Shown here one piece after another: positions 8,831 through 19,458 of a stretch of 64,000 nucleotides of DNA. The number at the start of each line of letters is the position of its first letter. Position 1 is the first letter of the stretch. Under the pieces are notes generated by a model. That model was not told the DNA's origin and searched no databases. It was given only the letters and a program-made list of their open reading frames with translations. The stretch comes from Candidatus Zambryskiibacteriota bacterium (lineage in GTDB: Bacteria > Patescibacteriota > Minisyncoccia > Phycocordibacterales > Zambryskibacteraceae), in the NCBI GenBank assembly GCA_016180955.1, contig JACPAD010000001.1, forward strand, positions 75,516 to 139,515, given 5' to 3'. The position numbers and the translations under genes were made by a program.

Positions 8831-8901
8831 TGCGGGATCGTCTAATGGTAGGACTGCAGATTCTGGATCTGCGTATCTTGGTTCGAGTCCAAGTCCCGCA
8901 G
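8831..8901 (+). tRNA. tRNA-Gln (anticodon CUG)
   Basis: Cloverleaf read by eye. Acceptor TGCGGGA/TCCCGCA with U1-A72 (Gln hallmark). Anticodon stem GCAGA/TCTGC, loop TTCTGGA. T-arm CTTGG-TTCGAGT-CCAAG. Confidence 0.8.
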
Positions 8902-8996
8902 CCTCTATAAAACTCACCTCATTTTCGGGGAATTTTTGGCGCGCGGCGCGGAGCGCCGAGTATGGAAATAAAGGGGAATCTTCTATACGCCGGTCG
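8897..8996. repeat. Left terminal inverted repeat of tRNA-Gln-adjacent cassette (pairs with 11830-11918; 9-bp indel tataaaact)
   Basis: The reverse complement of 11830-11918 matches 8897-8996 base for base apart from one 9-bp insertion. The repeat starts inside the last 4 nt of the tRNA. Confidence 0.75.
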
Positions 8997-10379
8997 GGTT
9001 CGAGCCGAAGATTTTGGGAGTAGAGATTTTTTGGAGGGGAGGTCGTTCCTTTGAGCGGCTTCAGCTAAGCTTGAAGCCACATTTAGCCATTCCTGCATCG
9101 GTTCGAGCCACGCTTTAGCGTTCCTTTCTAAATTACTTATTTTCTCTTCAAAACTTTTCTTATTAGAGAAAAGTTTTGAGCGCTCTTTGAGATAGGTTTC
9201 TCGGTCTATGTCTTGGGCTATGTAGATATCTAAGAGTCTCTGTATTTTCTCGGAGATAGTAGAAACCCTGTTTCGAAGGTCTTCAATTATTACTGCGCTT
9301 TCTTGCTCGGCCTTCTTTTCATCTTCTTTCATTAACTTTTCAAATTCTTCAGCCCAACGGCTCGGCATAGATGAGCCGTTGAGGATTTCGTTAACCTGTT
9401 CTAACAGCGCTTCTTCTCTTATATGCGGTTCGTTGCAAGGAGTCGTTTTGGACTTCTTCGTGCAATGGTAATAAATATATTTATGGACATTGCCGTTCTT
9501 CTGTCTTTTAACCTTATCCTCTGCCGTTATCATCATCCCGCAAGTAGCACAGCGTAGAAGCCCGCAGAAAGCTTTTGGCTCATTATGTGGCTTCATAGGA
9601 TGGCCTCGCTCAAGGATTACATCTTGGACTTTATCCCAGAGTTTCTTACTAACTATCGGAGGATGCTTACCCTCGTGAATTTCTCCACCATAGAAAAAGT
9701 GGCCATAATAGAATGGATTTGAAAGAATCCACTTAACTCTATCCTTGTGCATTTTCTTTCCGCTTATGGTTCTAACATTTCTCTCGTAAAGAAAATTAGA
9801 AACATCTTCCAGCCGAGCATCGCCGTTTGAATAAAGCTCAAAAGCTTGTTTGAGTATTGGAGCTTTCTTTCTATCCACCACAATAGTTCTTCTCCTTGTA
9901 TCGTTTAAATATCCAGTGGGAGCGGTGCTTGGAAATTCGCCTCGCTTAACCTTTGCCCTTAACCCCCTTTTTACATTAGTACTTAAATCTCTAATAAATT
10001 GGTTGGCCATACCAAACTCCACAGACATCATTAAGACATTGTCTGTGGGGTAGTAACTTCTATCGTGTATAAGCAAGTGCTGAATAATGCCTTGCTGAAG
10101 CATCCAGCTGATCTGTCCGCCGTCTACCGGATTACGGGCAAGGCGATCTAATTTCCAGCACACAATACCTTGCGCCTCGCCCTTTTGAATCTTTTTGACC
10201 ATTTCGTTAAAGACAGGTCTGTCAGGCATTTTAGCCGTGCGCTTTTCCACGAATTCTTCTGTAATAGGCAGACCTTCTTTCTTGGCTAAAGCTCTTAATT
10301 CTGAAAGCTGGGCTTCAATAGAAAGTACTTGTTTGTCTTCGACATCTGTAGATTTTCTAGTGTAGAGAAAGTAATTCAT
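8919..10379 (-). CDS. Large serine recombinase (resolvase/invertase catalytic domain + recombinase domain + zinc ribbon + coiled coil)
   Basis: N-terminus YTRKSTDVEDKQVLSIEAQ (catalytic Ser in the RKST context) ... GIVCWKLDRLARN. Zinc ribbon CGLLRCATCG...YYHC. The C-terminal ~20 codons run into the inverted repeat and may be read-through. Confidence 0.85.
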   Translation of the reverse strand: MNYFLYTRKSTDVEDKQVLSIEAQLSELRALAKKEGLPITEEFVEKRTAKMPDRPVFNEMVKKIQKGEAQGIVCWKLDRLARNPVDGGQISWMLQQGIIQHLLIHDRSYYPTDNVLMMSVEFGMANQFIRDLSTNVKRGLRAKVKRGEFPSTAPTGYLNDTRRRTIVVDRKKAPILKQAFELYSNGDARLEDVSNFLYERNVRTISGKKMHKDRVKWILSNPFYYGHFFYGGEIHEGKHPPIVSKKLWDKVQDVILERGHPMKPHNEPKAFCGLLRCATCGMMITAEDKVKRQKNGNVHKYIYYHCTKKSKTTPCNEPHIREEALLEQVNEILNGSSMPSRWAEEFEKLMKEDEKKAEQESAVIIEDLRNRVSTISEKIQRLLDIYIAQDIDRETYLKERSKLFSNKKSFEEKISNLERNAKAWLEPMQEWLNVASSLAEAAQRNDLPSKKSLLPKSSARTRPAYRRFPFISILGAPRRAPKIPRK

Positions 10380-10387
10380 GGTTAAGT

Positions 10388-10969
10388 TTATCCAACTTGC
10401 CTAGTCCAATCTCGTGCAATACTTTCTATTCGCCCCACCTCAAGTTCTGGTAGCAAGCCTGTATGCATAATTATATTTCGAGATAATTCCAGATCGTTCA
10501 AACGAGAAGAAACCCAATGTTGGTCAGGGAATAAATCAGAAAAATCCTGCCAATTATTTATGATTAGCTGTGATAAATTCGCAAAAGTAGTATAACCAAT
10601 CATCGCTGATGCTCTAGGGGTATGATATTTATTTTTCTCCTCTTTCTCTTTTAAATCAGTTGACGCTTTTTTAATTTTTTCACTCACACAATTAGTTTCC
10701 CACCAACCAGCGCCGTGCCTCTCGCTAAGCCTATCGTCTATGAGCTCCCGAACAGCATTTTCAATACAATAAAACAAGGCATACACCGTGGCCATTCGAC
10801 TAGCCTCATGAATTAAAATCGGACTAAAGTCTGTTTCCTCTATCTTTGCTACAGGGCTTAGTGGAACGCGAATCCCAATTCCTTCATTTTCCAAAGTTTT
10901 CAGGTCCTGTTGAGCAAGAAGGCCATTGAAAACCATCTTTTTAAGACGCGAGACGTGATAATGCTTCAT
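10388..10969 (-). CDS. HEPN-domain protein (Abi/Swt1-like; C-terminal R-x4-H motif)
   Basis: 193 aa, all-helical. C-terminal LELSRNIIMHTG fits the HEPN Rx4-6H nuclease motif. 8 bp upstream of the recombinase gene, same strand. Confidence 0.5.
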   Translation of the reverse strand: MKHYHVSRLKKMVFNGLLAQQDLKTLENEGIGIRVPLSPVAKIEETDFSPILIHEASRMATVYALFYCIENAVRELIDDRLSERHGAGWWETNCVSEKIKKASTDLKEKEEKNKYHTPRASAMIGYTTFANLSQLIINNWQDFSDLFPDQHWVSSRLNDLELSRNIIMHTGLLPELEVGRIESIARDWTRQVG

Positions 10970-11580
10970 TCTCCAAGTAAATTATCCCGAATACTCTTAA
11001 ATATTGCGTTATAAACGCTGATATCGGTAGTAGCTGGTAAGTGAATTTGAATGTTTTGACAGAATTCTATCTGTTTTCCATTCTCAATAGGCAATTTAAG
11101 TGGTAGCATAATATCCTTATCCTTTTTCTCATCAACTGGTTTTTCTTTCACGCGTGGAGAAACACCAAATTTTGCCAAAGCCGCAAGCGTCTTAAATGTT
11201 GCTAAGTATCTGCCAACACTTGCTTCATCCTTGCCCGTTGTACGTGAAATTGCTCCCTTAATTTCACTATCACTTGCTTTTTGGATTTCAGTATTAATAT
11301 TAAATAGATCCCGATATAACTCATTCATTCTTTCCCCAAGAACAAATTGCCAATCCGTCTCATCCTTGAGTCTGTCGTAATATTCTGTAGGCGTTCCCTC
11401 CTCCGTGATAAAACCAAGTCTTTTAAAAAGCGGGATAATGGCTCGGTCATTAGAGCTAGAAAATCCTAAATTTTTTAAAAATTCATGAGTGAATTTAGTA
11501 GGTTTAGCAGCAGTTCTTATTTTTGTAAGAATTGCCTCAATTTTGTTATTAGAAAGCATGTAAGGATATGAATCAGTCAT
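10966..11580 (-). CDS. Hypothetical protein, partner of the HEPN gene (4-nt overlap)
   Basis: 204 aa, no recognisable motif. Translationally coupled to the HEPN gene. Confidence 0.4.
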   Translation of the reverse strand: MTDSYPYMLSNNKIEAILTKIRTAAKPTKFTHEFLKNLGFSSSNDRAIIPLFKRLGFITEEGTPTEYYDRLKDETDWQFVLGERMNELYRDLFNINTEIQKASDSEIKGAISRTTGKDEASVGRYLATFKTLAALAKFGVSPRVKEKPVDEKKDKDIMLPLKLPIENGKQIEFCQNIQIHLPATTDISVYNAIFKSIRDNLLGE

Positions 11581-11678
11581 GATGTTGTATTAAATAAATA
11601 AAAGATTTTGACAGGACGTATTACGAATTACAGAGCAAAGCTACTAAAGTGTAAGATATTTGTGTCAAACTGTAAATC

Positions 11679-11738
11679 AAGGGAGCTTCGCTAATGCGAA
11701 GAACGTGCGCGCGAAAGGGCGGGTGGGTCAAGCGCACA
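11679..11738. ncRNA. Copy 1 of a duplicated ~60-75-nt structured element (aagggag - variable hairpin - gtgcgcgcgaa.ggg.gggtgggtcaag.gcaca); function unknown
   Basis: Direct comparison with 17738-17815. The flanks are conserved and the hairpin sequence differs but keeps its stem structure. Confidence 0.3.
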
Positions 11739-11829
11739 CACGAAACAGAACGACCGACCCGAACCCAAGTATTTAAAAATCTCCCCTCCAAAATCTTCCG
11801 GCTTTGGATTTTCTGAACCCCACCCTCCA

Positions 11830-11918
11830 CGACCGGCGTATAGAAGATTCCCCTTTATTTCCATACTCGGCGCTCCGCGCCGCGCGCCAAAAATTCCCCG
11901 AAAATGAGGTGAGGCTGC
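11830..11918. repeat. Right terminal inverted repeat of the cassette
   Basis: Exact reverse complement of 8897-8996 apart from the 9-bp indel. Confidence 0.75.
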
Positions 11919-12003
11919 TTTGTATGACCCAATCCGAACCTATTTCCAGAAATTATAATGCAGATTAACCTTACCGCCCAGCGCCTTCGGCGCTGGGCTT
12001 GGC

Positions 12004-12082
12004 CTCGCCCCTTTCCGCTATCATACTTTCAATGTTGGCGGTGATAAGACTTTTTTGAATGGAATGAGCGGAAAGGGGCGAG
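12004..12082. other. Long stem-loop: 15-bp perfect stem (tcgcccctttccgct / agcggaaaggggcga) with a ~48-nt loop, preceded by a second hairpin at 11977-11997
   Basis: Read directly. Located downstream of the minus-strand gene ending at 12089. No canonical T-run follows. Confidence 0.4.
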
Positions 12083-12088
12083 AAAATT

Positions 12089-12730
12089 TTAAAACAAAAC
12101 ATTATTGTAAAATCTAAAAGATTTTGCTGGAGATTTAGTTAATCTAAAGCTCCTGACGTAGCTCTTGCCTCTAAAATTTTCCCATTTACCATCCCACTCT
12201 ACTAAAAATAAAAATCTTGTAGGTCTCAGAGCGTTTTTACTGACTATTACTATTTCAAATAAATAATTTCCTACCGGCAAAGCATTTCTAATTGTTCCAC
12301 TGGGATAACCCTCAGCCATAAGATGTAAAATTTCTTCATTGTCACAGATATAACAGACATCTAAGCGCCTAGAGTGTTTTGGTAGAATGTCAATTGGAGC
12401 TATTGATGGTTCGTGTGCCCACTTTAATTTAACAGGCGACCTAAAACTAGCTAATGCATTAAATTTTGAACCTTCTTTTTCCCAAATTTTAGTAATGTAT
12501 GCCTCGGCATTTCGAGAAACTTCAAATCCTCGATTTTTAACCATTAAATGTAGCCATAAGGACTGCGGTTTATTGGGGTGGTCGACAAGAGTAACTTCAT
12601 AATATGTTTCTGAAGGGACAAAAACTACTTTATGCTTAGACTTATAAAGCATCCATTGCAAAAAGGCATAAGGAATTGCAATTAAGGTAAGTAGTGAAGC
12701 TAACCAAGGAATTGTAATATTTTCTTCCAT
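12089..12730 (-). CDS. Membrane-anchored hypothetical protein
   Basis: 213 aa. One N-terminal TM helix, then a soluble domain with no recognised motif. Last gene of a three-gene minus-strand operon. Confidence 0.4.
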   Translation of the reverse strand: MEENITIPWLASLLTLIAIPYAFLQWMLYKSKHKVVFVPSETYYEVTLVDHPNKPQSLWLHLMVKNRGFEVSRNAEAYITKIWEKEGSKFNALASFRSPVKLKWAHEPSIAPIDILPKHSRRLDVCYICDNEEILHLMAEGYPSGTIRNALPVGNYLFEIVIVSKNALRPTRFLFLVEWDGKWENFRGKSYVRSFRLTKSPAKSFRFYNNVLF

Positions 12731-12742
12731 TACTTCAAATTT

Positions 12743-13117
12743 TTATTCTGGTCTACAATAAAATTCCAATCTGTATCCGTTCGGGTCATCAAACCAGATA
12801 AATTCCTTATTTCCATACTTATCAATCTTCACTCCGTTATTATAGATACCAGCTTCATTAAGAACTTTCTCAAAACCTCTTAATTCTTCGGCAGTCCTCA
12901 CTCCAAAAGCCAAATGATTTAGACTACCTTTGTCTTTATCAATCTTTTGGAAGTCTCCATCAGACAACGCAAGGTATATCGTTGATTCTCCTATTTTATA
13001 TGCCATATATTCCTCATCTAAATGGGATGGGCTACCTAAAAAGGCAGTATAGAACTTCTCAGTTTCCTTAAGATCCTTAACTATCAAAACTATGTGGTCT
13101 ATGAATGAGGGTTTCAT
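12743..13117 (-). CDS. VOC-family protein (glyoxalase / bleomycin-resistance / dioxygenase fold)
   Basis: 124 aa. IDHIVLIVKDLKETEKFY...LNHLAFGV...GYRLEFY follows the paired beta-alpha-beta-beta-beta VOC pattern. Confidence 0.65.
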   Translation of the reverse strand: MKPSFIDHIVLIVKDLKETEKFYTAFLGSPSHLDEEYMAYKIGESTIYLALSDGDFQKIDKDKGSLNHLAFGVRTAEELRGFEKVLNEAGIYNNGVKIDKYGNKEFIWFDDPNGYRLEFYCRPE

Positions 13118-13743
13118 TTCAAATTATTTAGCCTATCAAGTATTTGTTTTGTAAATTTTATTCTTTCCGCAGAAATAGAAGTGGTAAAAGAATTCAGCAA
13201 TTCATAAAAATCTTTGTCTTCTAATTTAATAACCCTGATTGCTTCTACGGGAGCTAAAGACCACTTATCTTGAAGTTCAAACCAGGCTCGTATGGCAAAT
13301 TCATAAAATACTCCAGCATAGAAAAATTCCACCATAGGATTATCACAATATTTTTCTATCTTGAGTTTCCAGCTATCTAATTTCTCAAATCGCTCCAAGA
13401 CACCATTTTTATATAGAGTTAGTGGACCTTTACTAAAATCTTCCTCTGTTTTAGTTAAAACTTTAGAGAGCTTACCCTCAGAGTTATCAAGCAGAATTTT
13501 TAACGGCCATAGTGGGCCTGACGGAATAGTTAGCGGTTTATCCTCGTCTGGCCAGTTCTTAAAAGTAATATCCAGACGCTCACCCTCAAAATCTATAAAC
13601 CCGCCATTTCCTTTCTTTGGACCAAGAAGAAATATATCCCAATCACTTCCGCTAGTTTCTTTTCCTTTTGCGCGAGAGCCGGCAAGAAGAATTACTTCTG
13701 GGTCGTGTTCTGTTTTGATGTATTTAATAATCTTGCCTTCCAT
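13114..13743 (-). CDS. Nucleotidyltransferase (Pol-beta superfamily, KNTase/ANT-like) with C-terminal helical domain
   Basis: GSRAKGKETSGSDWDIFLL matches the GS...DxD NTase signature. 4-nt overlap with the VOC gene. Confidence 0.6.
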   Translation of the reverse strand: MEGKIIKYIKTEHDPEVILLAGSRAKGKETSGSDWDIFLLGPKKGNGGFIDFEGERLDITFKNWPDEDKPLTIPSGPLWPLKILLDNSEGKLSKVLTKTEEDFSKGPLTLYKNGVLERFEKLDSWKLKIEKYCDNPMVEFFYAGVFYEFAIRAWFELQDKWSLAPVEAIRVIKLEDKDFYELLNSFTTSISAERIKFTKQILDRLNNLK

Positions 13744-13777
13744 ACTTAAAAATTAACAGAAATTAGACTTTTTAGCT

Positions 13778-13801
13778 AACGGCTCAATGGGTTGAGCCGT
13801 T
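13778..13801. promoter_or_regulatory. 10-bp perfect inverted repeat (aacggctcaa tggg ttgagccgtt) in the divergent promoter region between the NTase operon and the five-gene operon
   Basis: Read directly. Sits ~50 bp upstream of the 13852 start. Confidence 0.35.
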
Positions 13802-13851
13802 GATAAATTAGTAAGTTTCAAAAATGATGATTTTGTGGGATTATCTTATGC

Positions 13852-14535
13852 ATGGGAGGGACTATATACATCCTAATCAACGAGGCAATGCCTGGGTATG
13901 TCAAGATAGGAAAAACGACTAATTCAGTCGAGCAACGAATGCTTGAATTATCGCGCTCATCGGCCGTGCCAATGCCTTTTGAATGTTACTACGCGGCGGT
14001 GGTAAAAGACATGAATCAAGTAGAAAGAGCATTCCATGATGCTTTCGGCGACTACCGAATAAATCCGAAAAGAGAATTTTTTAATGTGGCTCCAGAACGA
14101 GTAGTTGCTATCCTCAAGCTACTCACCTTAAAAGAAGTTACACCTGGTAGAAATACTGGTATTGAGACAAAAGAGGATGCGATTGCTATTGAGATAGCAA
14201 GGAAAAAGCGATCGGCTTTCAATTTTAAAATGGTAGGTATTCCAGCCGGAGCGGAGCTTAAGTTTGTCCGTGATGAAAATATTATATGTATAGTAGCTCC
14301 AGACCAAAAACATGTTGTATTCGATGGTCGAGAGATGTCCTCCTCTGAAGCTGCCGCTTCAGCATTAGGTAGCAAGTGGTGGCCTCAAGGTCCTGGCTAC
14401 TGGACTTATAATGGGGAAACTTTAGATGCCCGTCGTTTGCGTATGGAAGAGGGTGATGAACCTACTCCGGAAGAAATAGAAGCTGCAGGTGACCAATGGC
14501 TATCATTGCAAGCAGATATAGCTAGAGGCAAATAA
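13852..14535 (+). CDS. GIY-YIG family protein (T5orf172-like N-terminal domain) with uncharacterised C-terminal domain
   Basis: GTIYILINEAMPGYVKIGKT supplies the GIY and YIG motifs. Conserved Arg/Glu/Asn follow (RMLEL...FNVAPE). First gene of the operon. Confidence 0.6.
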   Translation: MGGTIYILINEAMPGYVKIGKTTNSVEQRMLELSRSSAVPMPFECYYAAVVKDMNQVERAFHDAFGDYRINPKREFFNVAPERVVAILKLLTLKEVTPGRNTGIETKEDAIAIEIARKKRSAFNFKMVGIPAGAELKFVRDENIICIVAPDQKHVVFDGREMSSSEAAASALGSKWWPQGPGYWTYNGETLDARRLRMEEGDEPTPEEIEAAGDQWLSLQADIARGK

Positions 14536-14539
14536 GTTT

Positions 14540-15682
14540 ATGGCAAACAAAAATCTTACAAATGCGAAACGGGCAAAGAACGACGAGTTTTATACCCAAT
14601 ATGGCGATATCCAAAAGGAAATTCAAGCATATTTGGATTTTAGTCCTAATGTATTTCGAGGCAAGGTAGTCTATTGCAACTGTGATGACCCATTCGAGAG
14701 CAACTTCTTTCGTTATTTTGTGCTTAATTTCAACAAGCTTGGATTAAAACAACTTATTACTACCAGCTACAAACCTTCGCCGATTGCCAATACGGAGCTT
14801 GTATTACAGTCTTCTCTTCTCCCTGGCTATGAAGGTAGTATCGTGAGAAAACCATCAGAATCAAAAGGTCGACCAAAAATAACTGCCAATAAATTTATTA
14901 TTAATGAAGTGCAGGATGTGGACGGCGACGGCGAGTTCAATTTGAAGGATGTTGCTAAGCAGTTAAAGGCAAACAAAAACAACGAATGGATGCCGCTTGA
15001 GAAAGATGGCGATTTCAGAAGTCCCGAGTGCGTAAAATTACTGGAGCAATCTGACATTATAGTGACAAATCCACCCTTTAGTCTATTCCGCGAATATGTT
15101 AAACAACTCTTTGATTACAACAAAAAGTTTGTCATTATCGGCAACATGAATGCAATTATGTATAAGGAAATTTTTCCATTGATGAAGGCCGATAAAATGT
15201 GGCTGGGTAATGGTTTCCATGCCGGAAACGCCTATTTTTCTACCCCTTTTGCCAAAGAATACGGTGAGGGCGTATACAATCCTGAAACAGGTTTGGTAAA
15301 GTTCAGAAATGTTTGTTGGTTTACGAACCTTGATCATGGGCGTCGTCATCAACCATTGCCACTTATGACAATGAGTGAGAATTTAAAATATAGTAAACAT
15401 AAGGAAATCAAAGGTAAAAAATCCTATGATAAATATGACAACTACGACGCAATAGAAGTTTCGTTTACTGACGCTATTCCCAGTGATTATGATGGCGTAA
15501 TGGGTGTGCCAGTTAGTTTTTTAGACAAATATTCACCAGAACAATTTGAAATTATAGGAACTAGCGCCAATGGATTAGTGAGTAATGAATGGAAGTCGCC
15601 ACATTTTAAAAAACATAATAATCCATTTATAGGTAAAAAGCCGATCTTCCAGAGAGTGCTGATAAGACACAGAAAAAAATAA
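14540..15682 (+). CDS. N6-adenine DNA methyltransferase
   Basis: Catalytic NPPF tetrapeptide ([11 protein letters not shown]). N-terminal NDEFYT motif. 4-bp gap after the upstream gene. Confidence 0.75.
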
Positions 15683-15683
15683 T

Positions 15684-16847
15684 ATGAAAACGACTCTAAA
15701 AACTAATATGACTGTCAAAGAAATCTGCGAAGGGTTCGTTTATAACGAACTTGAAGGTAAGGGTTTATTCGGGTTATCTGGCAAGCTTACAATTCAGCCA
15801 GAGTATCAGCGTAACTATATTTATGCAGAAGAAGGAAGGGAGACGGCAGTTATTGATTCAATCCTAAAAGGATATCCACTTGGGTTAATTTACTTCCATA
15901 AGGTTAATGATGATACTTTCGAAGTTTTAGATGGACAGCAACGTATCACCAGTATCGGGCGTTTTGTGAATGAAAAGTTTGCCATTAAAGATGAAAACGG
16001 GATGCAACAAAATTTTAGTGGTATGGCAGAGAACAAGAAAACCAAGATTTGGGAAACGAAATTACTCATTTACGAATGTGAGGGTGAAGAAAGTGAAATA
16101 AAAGATTGGTTTAAAACGATTAATATTGCTGGAATCCCACTTAGGAATCAGGAATTACTCAATGCTGTGTATTCTGGGTCATTCGTGACGTTAGCAAGAG
16201 AGGAATTTAGCAACCGCCAAAATGCGAACATTCAGAAATGGGGCGCATATATATCAGGCAGTGCGAACCGTCAGGATTTCTTAGAGCGAGCACTTGAATG
16301 GGTAAGTAAGGGAAATATTGAGGGCTATATGACGCTTCATCGTCACGATAAAAACATCACTGAGCTAAAGAAATATTTCAACAGCGTGATTGACTGGGTA
16401 TCTAGTGTGTTTACCGATGTAGAAAACGAAATGCGTGGGCTTGAGTGGGGGCGATTATACGAGGAGTATCACAAAAAGGCATATAGTCCGGCAAAAGTAT
16501 CGGCAGATGTGCGTAAGCTCTATGGCGATCCGTATATAAAAAATCGCAAAGGTATTTTTGAATATATTCTTGGCGGTTCAGTTGATACGAAGTTGCTAGA
16601 TGTTCGGATTTTTGATGAAACAATCAAAAGAGCTGTTTATGCAAAACAAACTAGCGAAGCTGAAACTAAAGAGAAATCAAACTGCCCGCATTGTGCTATT
16701 GGACACGATGCTAACAAGAGCAAGATTTGGAGTTTTGGCGAAATGGAAGCAGATCATGTATCCGCTTGGGTTAAAGGTGGTGCGACTTCAGCCAAGAATT
16801 GTCAGATGCTCTGCAAGACACATAATCGAGCAAAGGGTAATCGTTAA
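15684..16847 (+). CDS. DUF262 (ParB/Srx-like, DGQQR motif) fused to a C-terminal HNH endonuclease; GmrSD/SspE-like type IV restriction architecture
   Basis: [15 protein letters not shown] is the DUF262 hallmark. C-terminal CPHCAIGHD...EADHVSAW...[15 protein letters not shown] is a canonical HNH motif. Confidence 0.75.
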
Positions 16848-16871
16848 AGAACTTTAGTGTAAAATTAAATT

Positions 16872-17159
16872 ATGTACTATATATTCACTCTAATTATCGG
16901 TTTTCTACTCGGTTATTTTATTGCTTCTAAAAAGCAGGAGGTCGGCTTCATTTCTAAGCAACAGGAAGAAAAGAAACGGAATAAACAAGCAATTTTTGAG
17001 CTTCTGGAAACTAATCACCCTCTTACCAATAACGATGTGGAAGTAATGCTTGGCATTTCTGACGCCACCGCCACCAGATATTTCGACGAGTTAGAGAAAG
17101 AAGGTAAAGTGCGCCAAGTGGGGAAAACTGGTCGATACGTGAATTACGAAAGAGTTTAA
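16872..17159 (+). CDS. Small membrane-anchored protein with C-terminal wHTH-like domain (paralogous to C-terminus of 17161-17739)
   Basis: 95 aa. N-terminal TM helix. C-terminus LTNNDVEVMLGISDATATRYFDELEKEGKVRQVGKTGRYVNY. Confidence 0.4.
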   Translation: MYYIFTLIIGFLLGYFIASKKQEVGFISKQQEEKKRNKQAIFELLETNHPLTNNDVEVMLGISDATATRYFDELEKEGKVRQVGKTGRYVNYERV

Positions 17160-17160
17160 A

Positions 17161-17739
17161 ATGGCAGAAGAAACTACAACTGAACCTGTAGCAAACGAGT
17201 CGGTTGCCGAACCTGCTCCGGTCCAACCTGAACCGGTAGTAATAACTCCACCCGCATCCGAATCAACTGCAGAACCGGCAGTGGTCGAGGAAACCCCAAC
17301 GCCTCAACCCGCTGAGCCGTTGAATCCAGAGCCGATTTTAGAACCCCCGTTGACTCCTGAACCTGTGCAAGAGCCAGCCATTGAAACTCCACCTATAACC
17401 CATAGTCCCGAGCCTGAATCGGTGTCCCAACCTGAATCTTCCGCTACTTCCGCACCTGTTACCGTTCCCGAACCACAAGTTATCGCCTCTGCTTTTTCAA
17501 TTAGCCGAGCTCACGAACTTCTGATCAAGGCTCGTGAAGCTATACAATTCCGCAAGCGTAAAAAGCTAGAAAAGATTATGAGTATGTTTCTGAAACAAAG
17601 CAGTATCACGAATGATGAAGTGGAGAAACTTTTGCATATCTCTGACGCAACAGCCACACGCTACCTAGACCAACTTGAACGTGAAGGAAAGATTAAGAAA
17701 GGGAATGCTGGAAAGTATCTGTCGTATTCCAGAATGTAA
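17161..17739 (+). CDS. Pro/Glu-rich low-complexity protein with the same C-terminal wHTH-like domain
   Basis: 192 aa. Residues ~10-110 are PEP/TPE repeats. C-terminus ITNDEVEKLLHISDATATRYLDQLEREGKIKKGNAGKYLSY. 1-bp gap from the previous gene. Confidence 0.4.
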   Translation: MAEETTTEPVANESVAEPAPVQPEPVVITPPASESTAEPAVVEETPTPQPAEPLNPEPILEPPLTPEPVQEPAIETPPITHSPEPESVSQPESSATSAPVTVPEPQVIASAFSISRAHELLIKAREAIQFRKRKKLEKIMSMFLKQSSITNDEVEKLLHISDATATRYLDQLEREGKIKKGNAGKYLSYSRM

Positions 17740-17815
17740 GGGAGTATCTGCCGTATCCTCTCTGACCTACGGCAGATGGTGCGCGCGAACGGGAGGGTGG
17801 GTCAAGTGCACATGG
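17738..17815. ncRNA. Copy 2 of the duplicated structured element, starting at the stop codon of the 17161-17739 gene
   Basis: Flanks are conserved with copy 1 (35 aligned positions, 4 mismatches). The hairpin has a different sequence but the same structure. Confidence 0.3.
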
Positions 17816-18117
17816 ATTTTGAGGCCTCGGGCATTTCCGCGACGGGCGTCCTGGCCAACGGGTGAGCATCGCCGCTAAACGAAGGTACTGACTAACGAAA
17901 CTTGCCACTAAACGCAGTAATGAAAACGAGGAAGGGGGTTGTGCAACGACGGAATCCGAAGGAACGAGGATGAGGAGGAGCTGGGGGAAGGATTCCTTCC
18001 TTTCCAACCTCTGGTTTAGTTTCTGATTTTATTGTTATGTAAAAATTAACAGAATCACTATTTTTTGCCAGAAACTTACCATCCATTATAATTTTCCTAT
18101 AGGATTGTTATGAAAAG

Positions 18118-18146
18118 GCCCCGCTCCGACTTCGGTCGGAGCGGGG
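18118..18146. terminator. Bidirectional hairpin ccccgctccgac ttcg gtcggagcgggg, terminator of the minus-strand phosphoesterase gene
   Basis: Perfect 12-bp stem. On the minus strand it is followed by ttttcat. Same hairpin family as 27187-27212. Confidence 0.55.
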
Positions 18147-18153
18147 CCATGCA

Positions 18154-19188
18154 TTACTCAACTTGCGGTTCGATGTAACCGCCGGGGTTATCGTGACACA
18201 CCGTAATACCGGACGGCCACTCTTTCCTCTGCGCGCGTCGCGATGGTACGGGCAAGAATTCCCACTGAAGCTTCCCCGGCCAGAGGTCAATTTGAACGAC
18301 ACCCGGAGTATTCGTGACAACTTCTTCCCCTTCCCTTGCCCACTTGCGTTTCCCTTGCTCTGGATAGTGAGGAACGGCTCCGCCGGCGCCGGCGATGATG
18401 CCTTCGATACCGTAGACACTATCTACTCTCGGCGACCTTCCGTCGATTGGAAAGAGCGAGGGCAGCTTAGCAAACATATGTTCGTGGCCGACAAGATAGA
18501 AGTCCACGCCGTACTTAATGGACTTCCTGAATAACGGCCCAACCCATGACGGACTGGCGAATCGACCCGACGAAAACATCGGCCGGTGATACGCTGTCAG
18601 CACGCACTGGCGTTTGTAACGTTCCCGCAGTTCCCACTCCATCCAGTCCAGCTGTAATTTTGCCAGCGGATTGTTAAGCTTGCCGCCAGTAGTGCTCATC
18701 ACCTCGCTATTCAAGAGCATTACACTCCAGCCACCCCAGTCGAAGACCTGCCAGCCCTTCCCGCGCACACCGTGGTTAAAGGTGTAGTTGAAGAAGAATG
18801 GCACGCCTCCTACGGCCCGTACGCCATCATAGTCGTGATTACCCGGCAGGGAGTAGGCGACGCGTAGGATGGAACCGCAAGAGGTTCTCTCGAGACGTTC
18901 GTACGCTTCGGGAGTGCCTGCACTGCCATCATTGTCGTTAGAGATGTCTCCCAAGAGAAGCACGCGGGCCTGCGGATTCTCTTCCAACAGCCGCACCAGC
19001 ATCCGACAGACTTCTTCGGTATCAGGAGACTTACTGTCCAAATCCCCCACCGCGTAGAGCCGCGCGGGCAGTATCTGGGCCTGACCTAAAGCCGGCAGCA
19101 AAACGAAGAGAGCCAGAAGCAGTATTCTCATATCGCCTCCAGTGAACGATTCTCTTTGTATTAGATACCCACGTCTTAAATTAAGCAA
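18154..19188 (-). CDS. Secreted metallophosphoesterase (calcineurin-like)
   Basis: Signal peptide MRILLLALFVLLPALGQAQ. Motifs GDLD...GDISNDNDG...GNHDY. Confidence 0.7.
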   Translation of the reverse strand: MLNLRRGYLIQRESFTGGDMRILLLALFVLLPALGQAQILPARLYAVGDLDSKSPDTEEVCRMLVRLLEENPQARVLLLGDISNDNDGSAGTPEAYERLERTSCGSILRVAYSLPGNHDYDGVRAVGGVPFFFNYTFNHGVRGKGWQVFDWGGWSVMLLNSEVMSTTGGKLNNPLAKLQLDWMEWELRERYKRQCVLTAYHRPMFSSGRFASPSWVGPLFRKSIKYGVDFYLVGHEHMFAKLPSLFPIDGRSPRVDSVYGIEGIIAGAGGAVPHYPEQGKRKWAREGEEVVTNTPGVVQIDLWPGKLQWEFLPVPSRRAQRKEWPSGITVCHDNPGGYIEPQVE

Positions 19189-19254
19189 GTAAAAGGGAGC
19201 CTGTGTGCTCGGCTCCCCTTTGAATGTCTGAACTGGGTCTAGGTCTCCTTTCGT

Positions 19255-19458
19255 TTAGTCTCCGGCAGTGGGTGGTAGGAGTTTATTCACAAACTTCTCC
19301 GGTTTCTTCTCGGGTTGCGGATCAATCTGGACTCGGAACTCCTCCAACGTTTCAGCGTGACAATGCTGACACAAGCCAAAATATTTGCCGTTTCGCGCTC
19401 GGCACTTGTAACACTTCCACTCTCTGGTTTTCATACAGACCCCCGATACTAGACCCAC
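19255..19458 (-). CDS. Small zinc-ribbon protein (CxxC...CxxC), hypothetical
   Basis: WKCYKCRARNGKYFGLCQHCH. Confidence 0.3.
   Translation of the reverse strand: MGLVSGVCMKTREWKCYKCRARNGKYFGLCQHCHAETLEEFRVQIDPQPEKKPEKFVNKLLPPTAGD

Follow-up and report, generated by a model that had tools for sequence, protein, structure and literature searches.

An integrative element at tRNA-Gln(CUG) of a Zambryskiibacteriota genome probably carries a second, inverted attP beside its large serine recombinase gene

The 3-kb cassette adjoining the tRNA-Gln(CUG) gene of Candidatus Zambryskiibacteriota bacterium is most likely (probability about 0.7) the integrase-proximal part of a single element. A large serine recombinase (LSR) would have inserted this element at the discriminator end of the tRNA gene by attP x attB recombination, and the element carries an extra, inverted attP. 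In the 64,000-nt stretch of contig JACPAD010000001.1 analyzed here (the window), it reaches from about 8903 to about 18000, roughly 9 kb (Table 1). On sequence grounds, the inverted repeat that bounds the cassette is best read as a duplicated attP arm overlapping the integrase's own 3' coding end. The element appears to belong to a hitherto undescribed family that is widespread in bacteria of the candidate phyla radiation; a literature search found no description of it.

Table 1. Features of the element and its target in the window.
Feature	Position	Strand	Remarks
tRNA-Gln(CUG), attB	8831–8903	+	ARAGORN 8831–8903; Rfam 8831–8901
Proximal repeat, putative P arm of the recombined attachment site	8898–9046	−	Junction J1: P-core-antisense tRNA; perfect part 8913–8996
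Large serine recombinase (LSR), 486 aa	8919–10379	−	Pfam Resolvase PF00239, Recombinase PF07508, Zn_ribbon_recom PF13408
HEPN_Swt1 protein (PADLOC PDC-M34B), arc 1 cargo	10388–10969	−	Pfam E = 3.4e-11; PADLOC E = 3.2e-65
DUF5343 protein (PADLOC PDC-M34A), arc 1 cargo	10966–11580	−	Pfam E = 2e-43; PADLOC E = 5.9e-67
N module	11680–11740	−	Conserved hairpin with C-rich loop, variable hairpin, CTCCC; immediately inside the distal repeat
Distal repeat, putative P arm of the intact internal attP copy	11775–11918	+	Junction J2; perfect part 11830–11913
P' arm	11917–11958	+	Encodes the conserved LSR C-terminus (A)LYDPIRTYFQKL-stop; kept outside the distal repeat in all loci examined
hp1	11976–11998	+	Conserved hairpin of the attP-associated module
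M	12004–12082	+	Conserved hairpins; closes the attP-associated module
Arc 2 cargo	12089–17739		Pfam, PADLOC; low-GC region
N' and truncated R region, far-end module	17741–18000	−	39-nt direct repeat of N; alignment with L001:1–620 and L003:8690–9305

The inverted repeat, described in an earlier note as about 90 bp, perfect and spanning 8897–11918, is real. Its perfect arms are complementary over 84 nt at 100%. On the outer side the match picks up again for 5 nt (GCAGC at 8898–8902 versus GCTGC at 11914–11918). The indel that separates this short match from the perfect arm is 10 nt long (8903–12) rather than the 9 bp reported before, and these 10 nt are absent at the outer end of the distal copy. 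The extended repeat starts at 8898, not at 8897, and the left copy indeed starts within the final 4 nt of the tRNA gene, as the ARAGORN and Rfam assignments show. Inwards, a degenerate similarity with indels continues (9003–9031 versus 11775–11803, 76%). Dinucleotide-preserving shuffles yielded 0 matches of the inverted-repeat kind, and there is no third repeat copy within the 64-kb window. Long inverted repeats had been called abnormal as an att structure for large serine integrases and this holds; identical arms are 110–170 nt here versus ~25 nt in the known systems.

Pfam confirms the proposed minus-strand LSR with its recombinase domain and zinc ribbon. Above gathering thresholds, PF00239 covers residues 4–148, PF07508 residues 171–258 and PF13408 residues 271–330, and the three domains in one protein place it in the large serine recombinase class. 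Weak but significant matches connect it to the A118 and SPbeta integrase structures and to a conjugative-transposon recombinase. Exact-protein look-ups found neither the LSR nor the adjacent HEPN protein on record. A scan of IMG/VR with the LSR alignment returned no relatives, so nothing points to a phage.

The proximal repeat is the 3' end of the LSR ORF. In homologues, which have 500–560 aa in the alignment, the repeat encodes ..KIFGSNPTLHDRRIQESPLFPYSALRAARQKFPENDVSFIRA and reading then continues into antisense tRNA. The C-terminal ~55 residues conserved there are out of frame in the window LSR, whose ORF stop falls inside the repeat after 29 out-of-frame residues. Compared with L001, one A is missing from a run of five, and compared with its own distal repeat (11820–11829) the gene lacks 10 nt adjoining 8996. 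The overlap of the repeat with the integrase 3' end escaped the earlier note because the tail is frameshifted.

Within 45 nt past the right-hand repeat, the LSR reading frame is completed (LYxxxRTYF-stop), and the right copy is thus likely to be an intact internal attP. The variation of P' across codon positions, measured as entropy, follows the pattern of a coding sequence. Positions 1 and 2 show no or almost no variation in the codons for Tyr, Thr and Phe, unlike position 3, which varies; position 2 of the Arg codon is invariant, and the Leu codon alternates between CTN and TTR.

In this family the attP would overlap the last ~60 codons of the integrase gene. Its P arm would be the last ~110–170 nt of the LSR ORF, its core 3–5 nt matching tRNA positions 72 and 73 plus C, and its P' arm would encode the final ~15 residues. 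Since this attP lies inside the integrase ORF, integration would part the gene body from its native C-terminus and fuse the body to the antisense tRNA. A second complete attP (P-core-P'-hp1-M) would sit in inverted orientation beyond the integrase and cargo module. The two arms of the inverted repeat would then be the P arm that belongs to the spare attP and the one that stayed behind at the tRNA junction. In intact relatives, a second repeat pair formed by P'-hp1-M brackets the remaining cargo. Simple integration of a circle with one attP was considered and rejected. It predicts rcM-rcP'-core-host by the cargo; the order observed beside the cargo is P-core-P'-M, which requires a second attP copy.

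Insertion took place directly after AGC at 8900–8902, which comprises tRNA positions 72 and 73 and the next base. In locus L101 the tRNA is identical over 8831–8902 and divergence begins right after 8902; the orientation of this tRNA relative to FtsX is opposite. The comparison with genomes lacking an insert at tRNA-Gln, suggested in the earlier note, identifies the window as the one with the insertion. Host relatives, which are related species and not the window's own, retain the order RNase J-MFS-(p210)-tRNA-Gln-FtsX-FtsE and have neither LSR nor N motif. Their tRNA-Gln and FtsX genes are 0.2–1.6 kb apart, compared with 10.6 kb in the window.

Counted from the repeat end, CGAAC occupies positions 15–19 in the antisense tRNA and 19–23 in P'. 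The CGAACC motif of the tRNA T-loop is 4 nt nearer to the core than its counterpart in P', one half of each site being comparable. This spacing agrees with the rule that puts the outer (zinc-ribbon) motif of B-type half-sites 4–5 bp nearer to the centre than that of P-type half-sites (PMC11722253). The P and P' arms have little dyad symmetry and no specific B' half-site stands out, both of which are atypical compared with characterized serine integrases. No candidate for a recombination directionality factor was identified.

A genome scan revealed 473 relatives, with several copies in some genomes. In 80 related loci from independent assemblies of Patescibacteria genomes, the inverted copy is present in 55, located 1.6–10 kb upstream of the LSR. 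The identity of the copies is 82–100% with one weaker case at 72%, and the breakpoint is the same in all 55 loci at LSR identities of 56–86%. A tRNA adjoins the LSR end in antisense in 44 loci and represents 14 specificities; the overlap is 2–6 nt where both repeat copies are detected. The distal repeat is adjoined by a tRNA in none of the 80 loci, and its flank is conserved regardless of tRNA or host.

The far end of the element is seen in eight relatives (L008, L010, L024, L025, L028, L034, L045 and L056). A second P'-hp1-M in opposite orientation is found there 3–7 kb further out, and at a third junction, J3, unrelated (host) DNA is followed by the same 3–5 nt core and then by P'. Housekeeping genes (aminoacyl-tRNA synthetase, Sua5/YrdC, PrsW) lie beyond J3 and accessory genes inside. 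In these relatives J1, J2 and J3 have 3–5 nt in common; the window possesses only J1 and the internal attP. Because J3 is missing from the window, the full model rests on the relatives. The far M, hp1, P' and J3 expected near 18000 are absent and no second P' or M is present in the window. Its right boundary is therefore undefined and only bracketed, at about 18000–19400. Tandem accretion, with the 39-nt repeat at 17774 marking where a second, older element ends, was considered and rejected, as N' and R form the regular far-end module of a single element in L001 and L003. Judged by its sequence, with the LSR tail frameshifted and the far junction lost, the window copy appears to be decaying and is probably immobile.

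The HEPN protein carries LELSRNIIMH and its gene ends 8 nt upstream of the LSR gene, both as described earlier. The third minus-strand gene, formerly called hypothetical, is present and encodes a DUF5343 protein according to Pfam. It overlaps the HEPN_Swt1 gene by 4 nt. PADLOC matches both components of PDC-M34, in line with the defence-type cargo proposed before. Both are at E about 1e-65, adjacent and overlapping, and nothing sets this copy apart from PDC-M34 as known to PADLOC; the defence function is a prediction only. The three minus-strand genes presumably form one transcription unit. Scans for promoters and terminators performed no better than chance.

Arc 2 encodes a 213-aa ORF, a VOC protein, a nucleotidyltransferase, T5orf172 (PDC-S57), an EcoRI-like type II methylase, a GmrSD_N/HNH restriction enzyme and two winged-HTH proteins. 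In L164, P-P'-M is followed by a 217-aa ORF that matches no family, by methylase and GmrSD homologues and by a 95-aa ORF. The methylase and restriction enzyme were matched by sequence and the 95-aa gene by size and position. The same genes after P-P'-M in L164 indicate that the 6 kb to the right of the repeat belong to the same element.

The two repeat copies evolve in concert, as judged from their sequences: median identity over the outer 100 nt of the repeat is 0.99 within elements versus 0.58 between elements. One orientation prevails in 75 of 82 classifiable homologue clusters and in all 44 loci with a visible adjacent tRNA. Of 120 homologue clusters, 7 have the LSR body joined to P', and the flipped state amounts to ~8% of homologues as assembled. 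In L003, M is followed by 6 kb and then by R and an inverted M; in L164, a homologous R-M cargo follows M. Both arrangements are expected from a flipped integrase arc, and L003, L063 and L164 are the contigs consistent with the other isomer. Joining errors through the repeat might account for these contigs. No contig contains the flipped state in full (tRNA-repeat-N-cargo-LSR-P-P'), and no circular form of the element was found. Look-ups with the flanking proteins and DUF5343 returned only short Logan contigs that end at the tRNA, the repeat or M and are uninformative about orientation. Presumably the two copies recombine with each other, which would flip the integrase arc and let the integrase regain its native C-terminus. 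Homologous recombination is the most likely route. The spare attP may serve a separate purpose, such as rebuilding an intact integrase gene in situ or permitting integration in either orientation.

The invertible segment proposed in the earlier note stands insofar as the inter-repeat segment is found in both orientations across the family. It is not of the Hin/Gin/Cin type, since the recombinase is large, the sites differ in one half (tRNA versus P') and one orientation strongly predominates. A dedicated switch is unlikely. The recombinase would flip the 3-kb segment as programmed phase variation, toggling its own C-terminus and orienting the cargo with or against read-through from the promoter of the tRNA. 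Besides the two orientations, the homogenized copies and the many contigs ending at repeats would fit. Furthermore, J1 and J2 have the P arm in common, the only difference being a B-type half-site in one and a P-type half-site in the other; a crossover at the core would hence recreate both sites. However, the orientation bias described above argues against a switch, the cargo is not always co-oriented with the LSR (L165, L166) and the window LSR meets the same in-repeat stop in both orientations. Inversion would also contravene the synapsis rules, under which attP does not pair with a hybrid (attL/attR-type) site and synapsis of attP with attP is blocked (PMC11722253). The notion of a self-contained transposable cassette bounded by inverted repeats, also raised earlier, is largely refuted and retains very little probability. 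In that case the 3-kb unit would be mobile alone and P'-hp1-M would be target or host sequence. Minimal versions of 1.8–1.9 kb, consisting of repeat-N-LSR-repeat only, do exist (L010, L015, L020), and short terminal inverted repeats are known from serine-recombinase transposons and SCCmec. Yet the cassette never occurs without P'-hp1-M, irrespective of tRNA and host, and P'-hp1-M is absent downstream of tRNA-Gln in 19 host relatives. Conserved element sequence (P', hp1, M) runs past the right repeat; selection maintains P' as coding sequence in the frame of the LSR tail, and the host junction of the relatives lies kilobases (3–7 kb) beyond the repeat. Moreover, the two repeat ends have their core nucleotides in inverted rather than direct orientation and therefore cannot be the two products of one crossover.

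Alternatively, the right repeat may be the remnant 3' end of a second, deleted integrase gene in a fossil of two head-to-head elements, ancestrally fixed and now functionless. The distal copy is literally a 3' gene fragment, and in one subfamily it has a private 9-nt insertion (FGFEFLN for IFGSN) that the LSR copy lacks. Such a relic is improbable given that the copy is kept at the same breakpoint in 55 loci and that P' retains its reading frame and codon pattern. A neutral relic would also decay, whereas the copy is ~99% identical to its partner at 58% between elements. Mis-assembly or collapsed contig ends as the source of the repeat have a negligible chance of being correct. Contigs often break at repeats (L036, L050, L058, L071) and the flipped contigs could be graph mis-joins, but the same architecture is found in 55 independent assemblies from different assemblers. 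A Logan contig from SRR12113430 corresponds exactly to window 10780–11844 and reaches 15 nt into the repeat. Many repeats are imperfect and hence cannot be collapsed copies.

A more far-reaching proposal is conceivable but doubtful, namely that the family consists of isomerizing integrative elements resembling the yeast 2-micron plasmid. Recombination between the inverted attP copies, perhaps catalyzed by the integrase, would switch the native C-terminus and thereby govern integration, excision and perhaps copy number. As RNAs or single-strand DNA sites, N, R and M would take part in this cycle, and the integrase would be a generalist. Conditions that lift the usual attP-attP block would permit its catalysis, and it would recognize the T-arm and acceptor end, which all tRNAs share, and read only the 3–5 nt target-specific core. 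The 2-micron plasmid and the phage Mu G and P1 C segments are inverted by Flp or by small serine invertases at identical sites, with repeats of hundreds of bp in P1. As in the element described here, two long inverted repeats with recombination sites separate two arcs, and the known systems occur as isomers. Here the two-arc, two-repeat layout is deduced from integrated copies. The element differs in being integrative, and catalyzed inversion would break the attP/attB rules.

Returning to the single element with a spare attP, its recombinase has the Resolvase, Recombinase and zinc-ribbon composition of A118/LI, SPbeta, phiC31, Bxb1, TnpX/TndX and CcrAB. Junctions with only a 3–5 nt core in common, as seen in the relatives, and the 4-nt B/P half-site spacing are likewise those of large serine integrases. 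In contrast to these, the target is the 3' end of many tRNA genes, the attP is inside the integrase ORF and a second, inverted attP is kept. In SSV1-type archaeal integrases, which are tyrosine recombinases, attP also lies inside the int gene and the gene is split into two large parts. In both cases integration splits the integrase frame and the integrated copy cannot encode the native protein. Unlike in SSV1, only the last ~15 codons are exchanged here and a spare 3' end is kept in the element. Cargo islands at tRNA genes, here with defence cargo, are shared with tRNA-targeting genomic islands and tycheposons. Those mostly use tyrosine recombinases and duplicate a 3' segment of the tRNA as direct repeats; the present element has no tRNA duplication, a crossover at positions 72–74 and inverted attP copies inside. 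Large serine recombinases are found in a minority of tycheposons (10.1101/2020.12.28.424599).

The window element is one decayed copy of what looks like a major mobile-element family of Patescibacteria. The family moves defence systems among very small genomes, including PDC-M34, Shedu, KAP NTPase, restriction-modification systems and reverse transcriptases. An attP in the integrase gene, a spare inverted attP and homogenized copies raise questions on the regulation of serine integrases. That a serine integrase lands precisely at the discriminator end in 14 or more kinds of tRNA is an unusual targeting logic and potentially useful for genome engineering.

N, R and M are three conserved, structured non-coding modules without an Rfam family. 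At gathering thresholds Rfam recognizes only tRNAs in the whole window, and in 11550–12200, 17600–18250 and L001:1–700 only chance-level hairpin matches were obtained. Region R was considered as a tmRNA or RNase P RNA and neither is supported. Conservation between loci ends at the 3' end of M, and hp1 and M recur in the second repeat pair of the relatives. A role of the N loop as a guide for the target tRNA was rejected, as the loop does not covary with the target. The N motif is present in 60 of 80 LSR loci versus 0 of 80 host-only loci, and 7 of 9 pairs of its stem have compensatory changes.

The perfect inverted repeat claimed in the earlier note beside tRNA-Gln(CUG) was confirmed. Its arms (8913–8996 and 11830–11913) comprise 84 nt each with perfect complementarity, and they are the only two copies in the 64-kb window when up to three mismatches are tolerated. 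No repeat match occurred in 100 shuffles. Stretches identical to parts of the window also occur in the read sets SRR12113430 and SRR12113383. On the outer side the left copy carries an indel, which was counted as 10 nt (8903–8912) instead of the 9 initially given; a further 5 nt match again behind it (8898–8902 and 11914–11918). On the inner side the similarity goes on in a degenerate form with indels. The 3' end of the tRNA falls at 8903 (ARAGORN) or 8901 (Rfam). The three minus-strand genes of the cassette include the reported large serine recombinase (LSR) and HEPN protein, whereas the third product, formerly listed as hypothetical, is a DUF5343 protein. The HEPN_Swt1 and DUF5343 proteins match the two components of PDC-M34, a candidate defence system in PADLOC (E about 1e-65).

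Features of the element in the window and in loci of relatives (L numbers); positions refer to the window unless a locus is named
Feature	Position	Strand	Remark
LSR (large serine recombinase)	8919–10379	-	
HEPN_Swt1 protein	10388–10969	-	
DUF5343 protein	10966–11580	-	
N module	11680–11740	-	inner side of distal copy
hp1	11976–11998		conserved hairpin module after P'
M	12004–12082		conserved hairpin module after hp1
N'	17741–17812	-	
N copies in L008	1896–2011 and 8840–8954		
R region	17812–~18000 (truncated); L001:56–570; L003:8690–9250		
M-to-N' genes 1			213-aa ORF, VOC, nucleotidyltransferase, T5orf172/PDC-S57 (Pfam, PADLOC)
M-to-N' genes 2			EcoRI-like methylase, GmrSD_N/HNH enzyme, two wHTH proteins (Pfam, PADLOC)

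The window LSR is a genuine large serine recombinase, though a distant one. Homologues at E ≤ 1e-20 amount to 6185 proteins among 8000 scored candidates; they are mostly 500–560 aa long, and those with names come mainly from Patescibacteria groups. The window LSR can be aligned to most of its best matches only as far as about residue 457. Past this point the homologues share a conserved tail (..KIFGSNPTLHDRRIQESPLFPYSALRAARQKFPENDVSFIRA) and then diverge into variable stretches such as GLGFEPRY..LPLDDPA, which are translated antisense tRNA genes. The window repeat codes for the conserved tail, but out of phase with the incoming LSR frame. A 5-A run in the gene is one A shorter than in the relative L001 and, compared with its own distal copy, the gene is 10 nt short right at the inner boundary of the perfect repeat. 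These two losses put the final 29 residues in the wrong frame. The tail is encoded on the + strand by the right-hand copy (ORF 11804–11968). Thus, the repeat is the 3' end of the integrase gene (the P arm) in an inverted duplicate.

Frameshifts at this A run are recurrent (the window, L060, L061 and the homologues P0062 and P0069). In the segment KK..QKIFGSN (AAAAAA...AAAATCTTCGGCTCGAAC; LSR codons ~461–472 of the family alignment, window about 9000–9040, ~110 nt inside the core) the third codon positions are nearly invariant, which is a constraint at the nucleotide level. This stretch contains a second CTCGAAC motif and is broken by a 9-nt insertion in the distal copy of one subfamily.

A scan of one genome per species gave 473 relatives, and 80 loci were retained. 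An inverted copy of the final 110–177 nt of the LSR region (less where the contig ends within it) is present in 55 of the 80 loci, 1.6–10 kb upstream of the LSR gene; in loci with no detected copy the upstream sequence is mostly too short to judge. The copies of one locus are 82–100% identical, with one weaker pair at 72%. Where both were detected, an antisense tRNA gene is found at the LSR-proximal copy in 34 loci, the repeat overlapping the final 2–6 nt of the tRNA. A tRNA at the distal copy is seen in none of the loci. The identical tRNA junction is seen in 10 more loci, whose inverted copy was undetected in the available sequence. Fourteen tRNA specificities are represented (Gln, Asn, Arg, Ala, Tyr, Leu, Ile, Phe, Glu, Gly, Trp, Thr, Ser and Val). 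The ends of both copies are the complement of tRNA positions 72 and 73 plus CC and fit the discriminator of the adjacent tRNA. An assembly artefact, the possibility which the earlier note had named against the repeat, is excluded since the assemblies are independent and many of the repeats are imperfect.

In L039, L049, L052 and L077 the LSR end adjoins only a ~43-nt 3' fragment of tRNA-Asn, after which shared non-tRNA sequence follows. These junctions suggest that the integrase may need only the T-arm and acceptor part; they likewise suggest a possible insertion into the att repeat of another island.

The sequence outside the distal copy is conserved over loci regardless of tRNA or genome and is element sequence, not host DNA. 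Its first ~45 nt, the P' arm, extend the frame of the tail (LYxxxRTYF, with a stop a few codons on). Over 37 loci the first and second positions of the Tyr, Thr and Phe codons of P' are (near-)invariant and the third is variable; the second position of the Arg codon is invariant and Leu alternates between CTN and TTR. This variation is of the coding type; in some state, therefore, the integrase is made with P' as its true C-terminus. The motif CGAACC is present in P' and in the antisense T-loop of every tRNA, 4 nt farther from the junction in P' than in the tRNA. Such an offset sets the P-type half-sites of serine integrases apart from the B-type ones (PMC11722253). Family-wide, the right-hand copy is an intact attP (P-core-P').

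Conservation between loci ends where M ends. In a comparison of window 11976–12082 with the distal flanks of L001, L004, L008, L010, L069 and others, the hp1 and M hairpins keep their pairing despite differing stems (e.g. CCCCTTTCCGCT/AGCGGAAAGGGG versus CCCCATCGCT/AGCGATGGGG), and the internal loop sequence TTGGCGGTGATAAGACTTTTTTGA is conserved. The N module is confined to these elements (60/80 LSR loci, 0/80 host-only loci), and an element usually has two copies that point the same way. In the stem, seven of nine pairs show compensatory changes and a U-G pair is invariant; the C-rich hairpin loop CCCaCCCaCCCgT is invariant, and behind it come a variable hairpin and CTCCC. The GC-rich, conserved, non-coding R region of about 450–550 nt, with a 19-bp long-range pairing (CCTCGGGCTGTTACCGCTA/TAGCGGTAACAGCCCGAGG), separates the far M hairpin from N', the second N copy. 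Neither N nor R matches a family in Rfam. R could be an RNA gene or a replication/transfer origin.

A P' profile search revealed a second P' in opposite orientation, 3–7 kb past the distal repeat (L008, L010, L024, L025, L028, L034, L045 and L056). Along 148–266 nt (P', hp1 and part of M) it matches the first copy exactly or almost exactly, and it is preceded by unrelated DNA and the same 3–5 nt core, not by the P arm. Beyond this far junction lie housekeeping genes (class I aminoacyl-tRNA synthetase, PrsW, Sua5/YrdC, trypsin-like peptidase), within it accessory genes (GmrSD, reverse transcriptase, multicopper oxidase, VirD4/TraG-like coupling protein). In integrase orientation the layout reads host - core - P' hp1 M - R N' - cargo 2 - (M hp1 P' core P, inverted) - N - cargo 1 - LSR - P - core - antisense tRNA. 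A circular form with two inverted attP copies, of which the one at the integrase gene end is used, would give this layout, and integration would be canonical attP x attB. The self-contained transposon bounded by inverted repeats that the earlier note considered is not compatible with element sequence past the right repeat and a host junction, in the relatives, 3–7 kb beyond it. Individual cargo genes of related elements code for a VirD4/TraG-like coupling protein (L008:3882–6614), a Shedu SduA_C protein (L166:10–1242), a KAP NTPase with an HTH gene (L165:98–2656), a reverse transcriptase (L045:4590–5675) and a group II intron reverse transcriptase/maturase (L003:322–1575).

Across the family, few parts of the gene vary as much as the outer ~100 nt of the P arm. 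The median identity of this stretch is 0.58 between elements and 0.99 for the two copies inside one element, and the nearest relative is the own partner copy in 47 of 49 elements. To judge from these identities the copies evolve in concert, and hence must recombine or convert one another. The LSR body is joined to P', not to a tRNA, in 7 of 120 homologue clusters. Of the contigs open to inspection, L003 comprises M, 6 kb, inverted N', R and M; L063 has the LSR joined to P'-hp1-M; in L164 restriction-modification cargo follows immediately after M; L166 starts in N and finishes in P'. Such arrangements would be expected from an integrase arc flipped in place. A simple excised circle would look different, with R following M. 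Mis-joins through the repeat would look the same as flipped contigs, none of which extends to the tRNA side of the flipped element. Inversion of the integrase arc is therefore regarded as supported at the family level but unproven. The initial interpretation holds in part: the segment is probably invertible and forms part of an integrative element with defence cargo. By known rules, the integrase itself is not expected to recombine these site pairs (PMC11722253), so homologous recombination across the 84–170 bp repeats is the default mechanism.

The chemistry would be ordinary serine-integrase recombination. Islands at tRNA genes are common, and a few tycheposons use large serine recombinases (10.1101/2020.12.28.424599). 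By the literature searched, the following appear to be new: insertion precisely at the discriminator end of a wide range of tRNAs; an attP overlapping the last ~60 codons of the integrase, so that integration exchanges its C-terminus; the spare inverted attP with its two-arc, two-repeat layout; and structured modules N, R and M tied to the element. In SSV1-type archaeal tyrosine integrases the attP lies inside the int gene, and the overlap in the present family is analogous. The spare inverted attP recalls the two-arc, two-repeat layout of the 2-micron plasmid. What makes the window copy interesting is the family it reveals.

The window agrees with the family plan from the tRNA through N' and R. 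A 39-nt direct repeat of N (17774–17812) is the beginning of the conserved R region in the alignment with L001 and L003. The genes from M to N', a region of low GC, are part of the same element. After the same P-P'-M module, L164 carries a 217-aa ORF (no family match), a homologous methylase and GmrSD, and a 95-aa ORF. This public contig opens with Illumina adapter sequence (L164:1–70, AGATCGGAAGAGCACACGTCTGAACTCCAGTCAC) and its 5' end is unreliable. The comparison with relatives lacking the insert, which the earlier note had proposed, defines the insertion site. Host relatives retain RNase J-MFS-(p210)-tRNA-Gln-FtsX-FtsE with just 0.2–1.6 kb from the tRNA to FtsX. The tRNA of the relative L101 is identical to window 8831–8902 and diverges straight after AGC, which places the crossover at 8900–8902.

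The window copy appears to be decaying. Its LSR tail has a shifted reading frame, 10 nt are absent from the outer end of the internal attP, R breaks off at about 18000, and there is no far M, P' or host junction. With these four kinds of damage the copy is expected to be incapable of excision.

A calcineurin-like phosphoesterase gene with host-like GC (18154–19188) lies between the element remnant and FtsX; 0 of the 80 host-related loci have a counterpart, so it may be a host gene or a further insertion. In the close host relatives L110 and L113, which share the flanking genes, the tRNA-Gln gene and a neighbouring ~1.6-kb segment are each inverted from one genome to the other. The tRNA-Gln(CUG) locus is a hot spot of rearrangement. 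At the otherwise empty site of L113 (13843–13865) the tRNA-Gln trailer AGCCTGAATAAATGTGAG is similar to the initial ~15 nt of the element's P arm (AGCCCGAATAAAACTCAC), which may be a scar or a coincidence.
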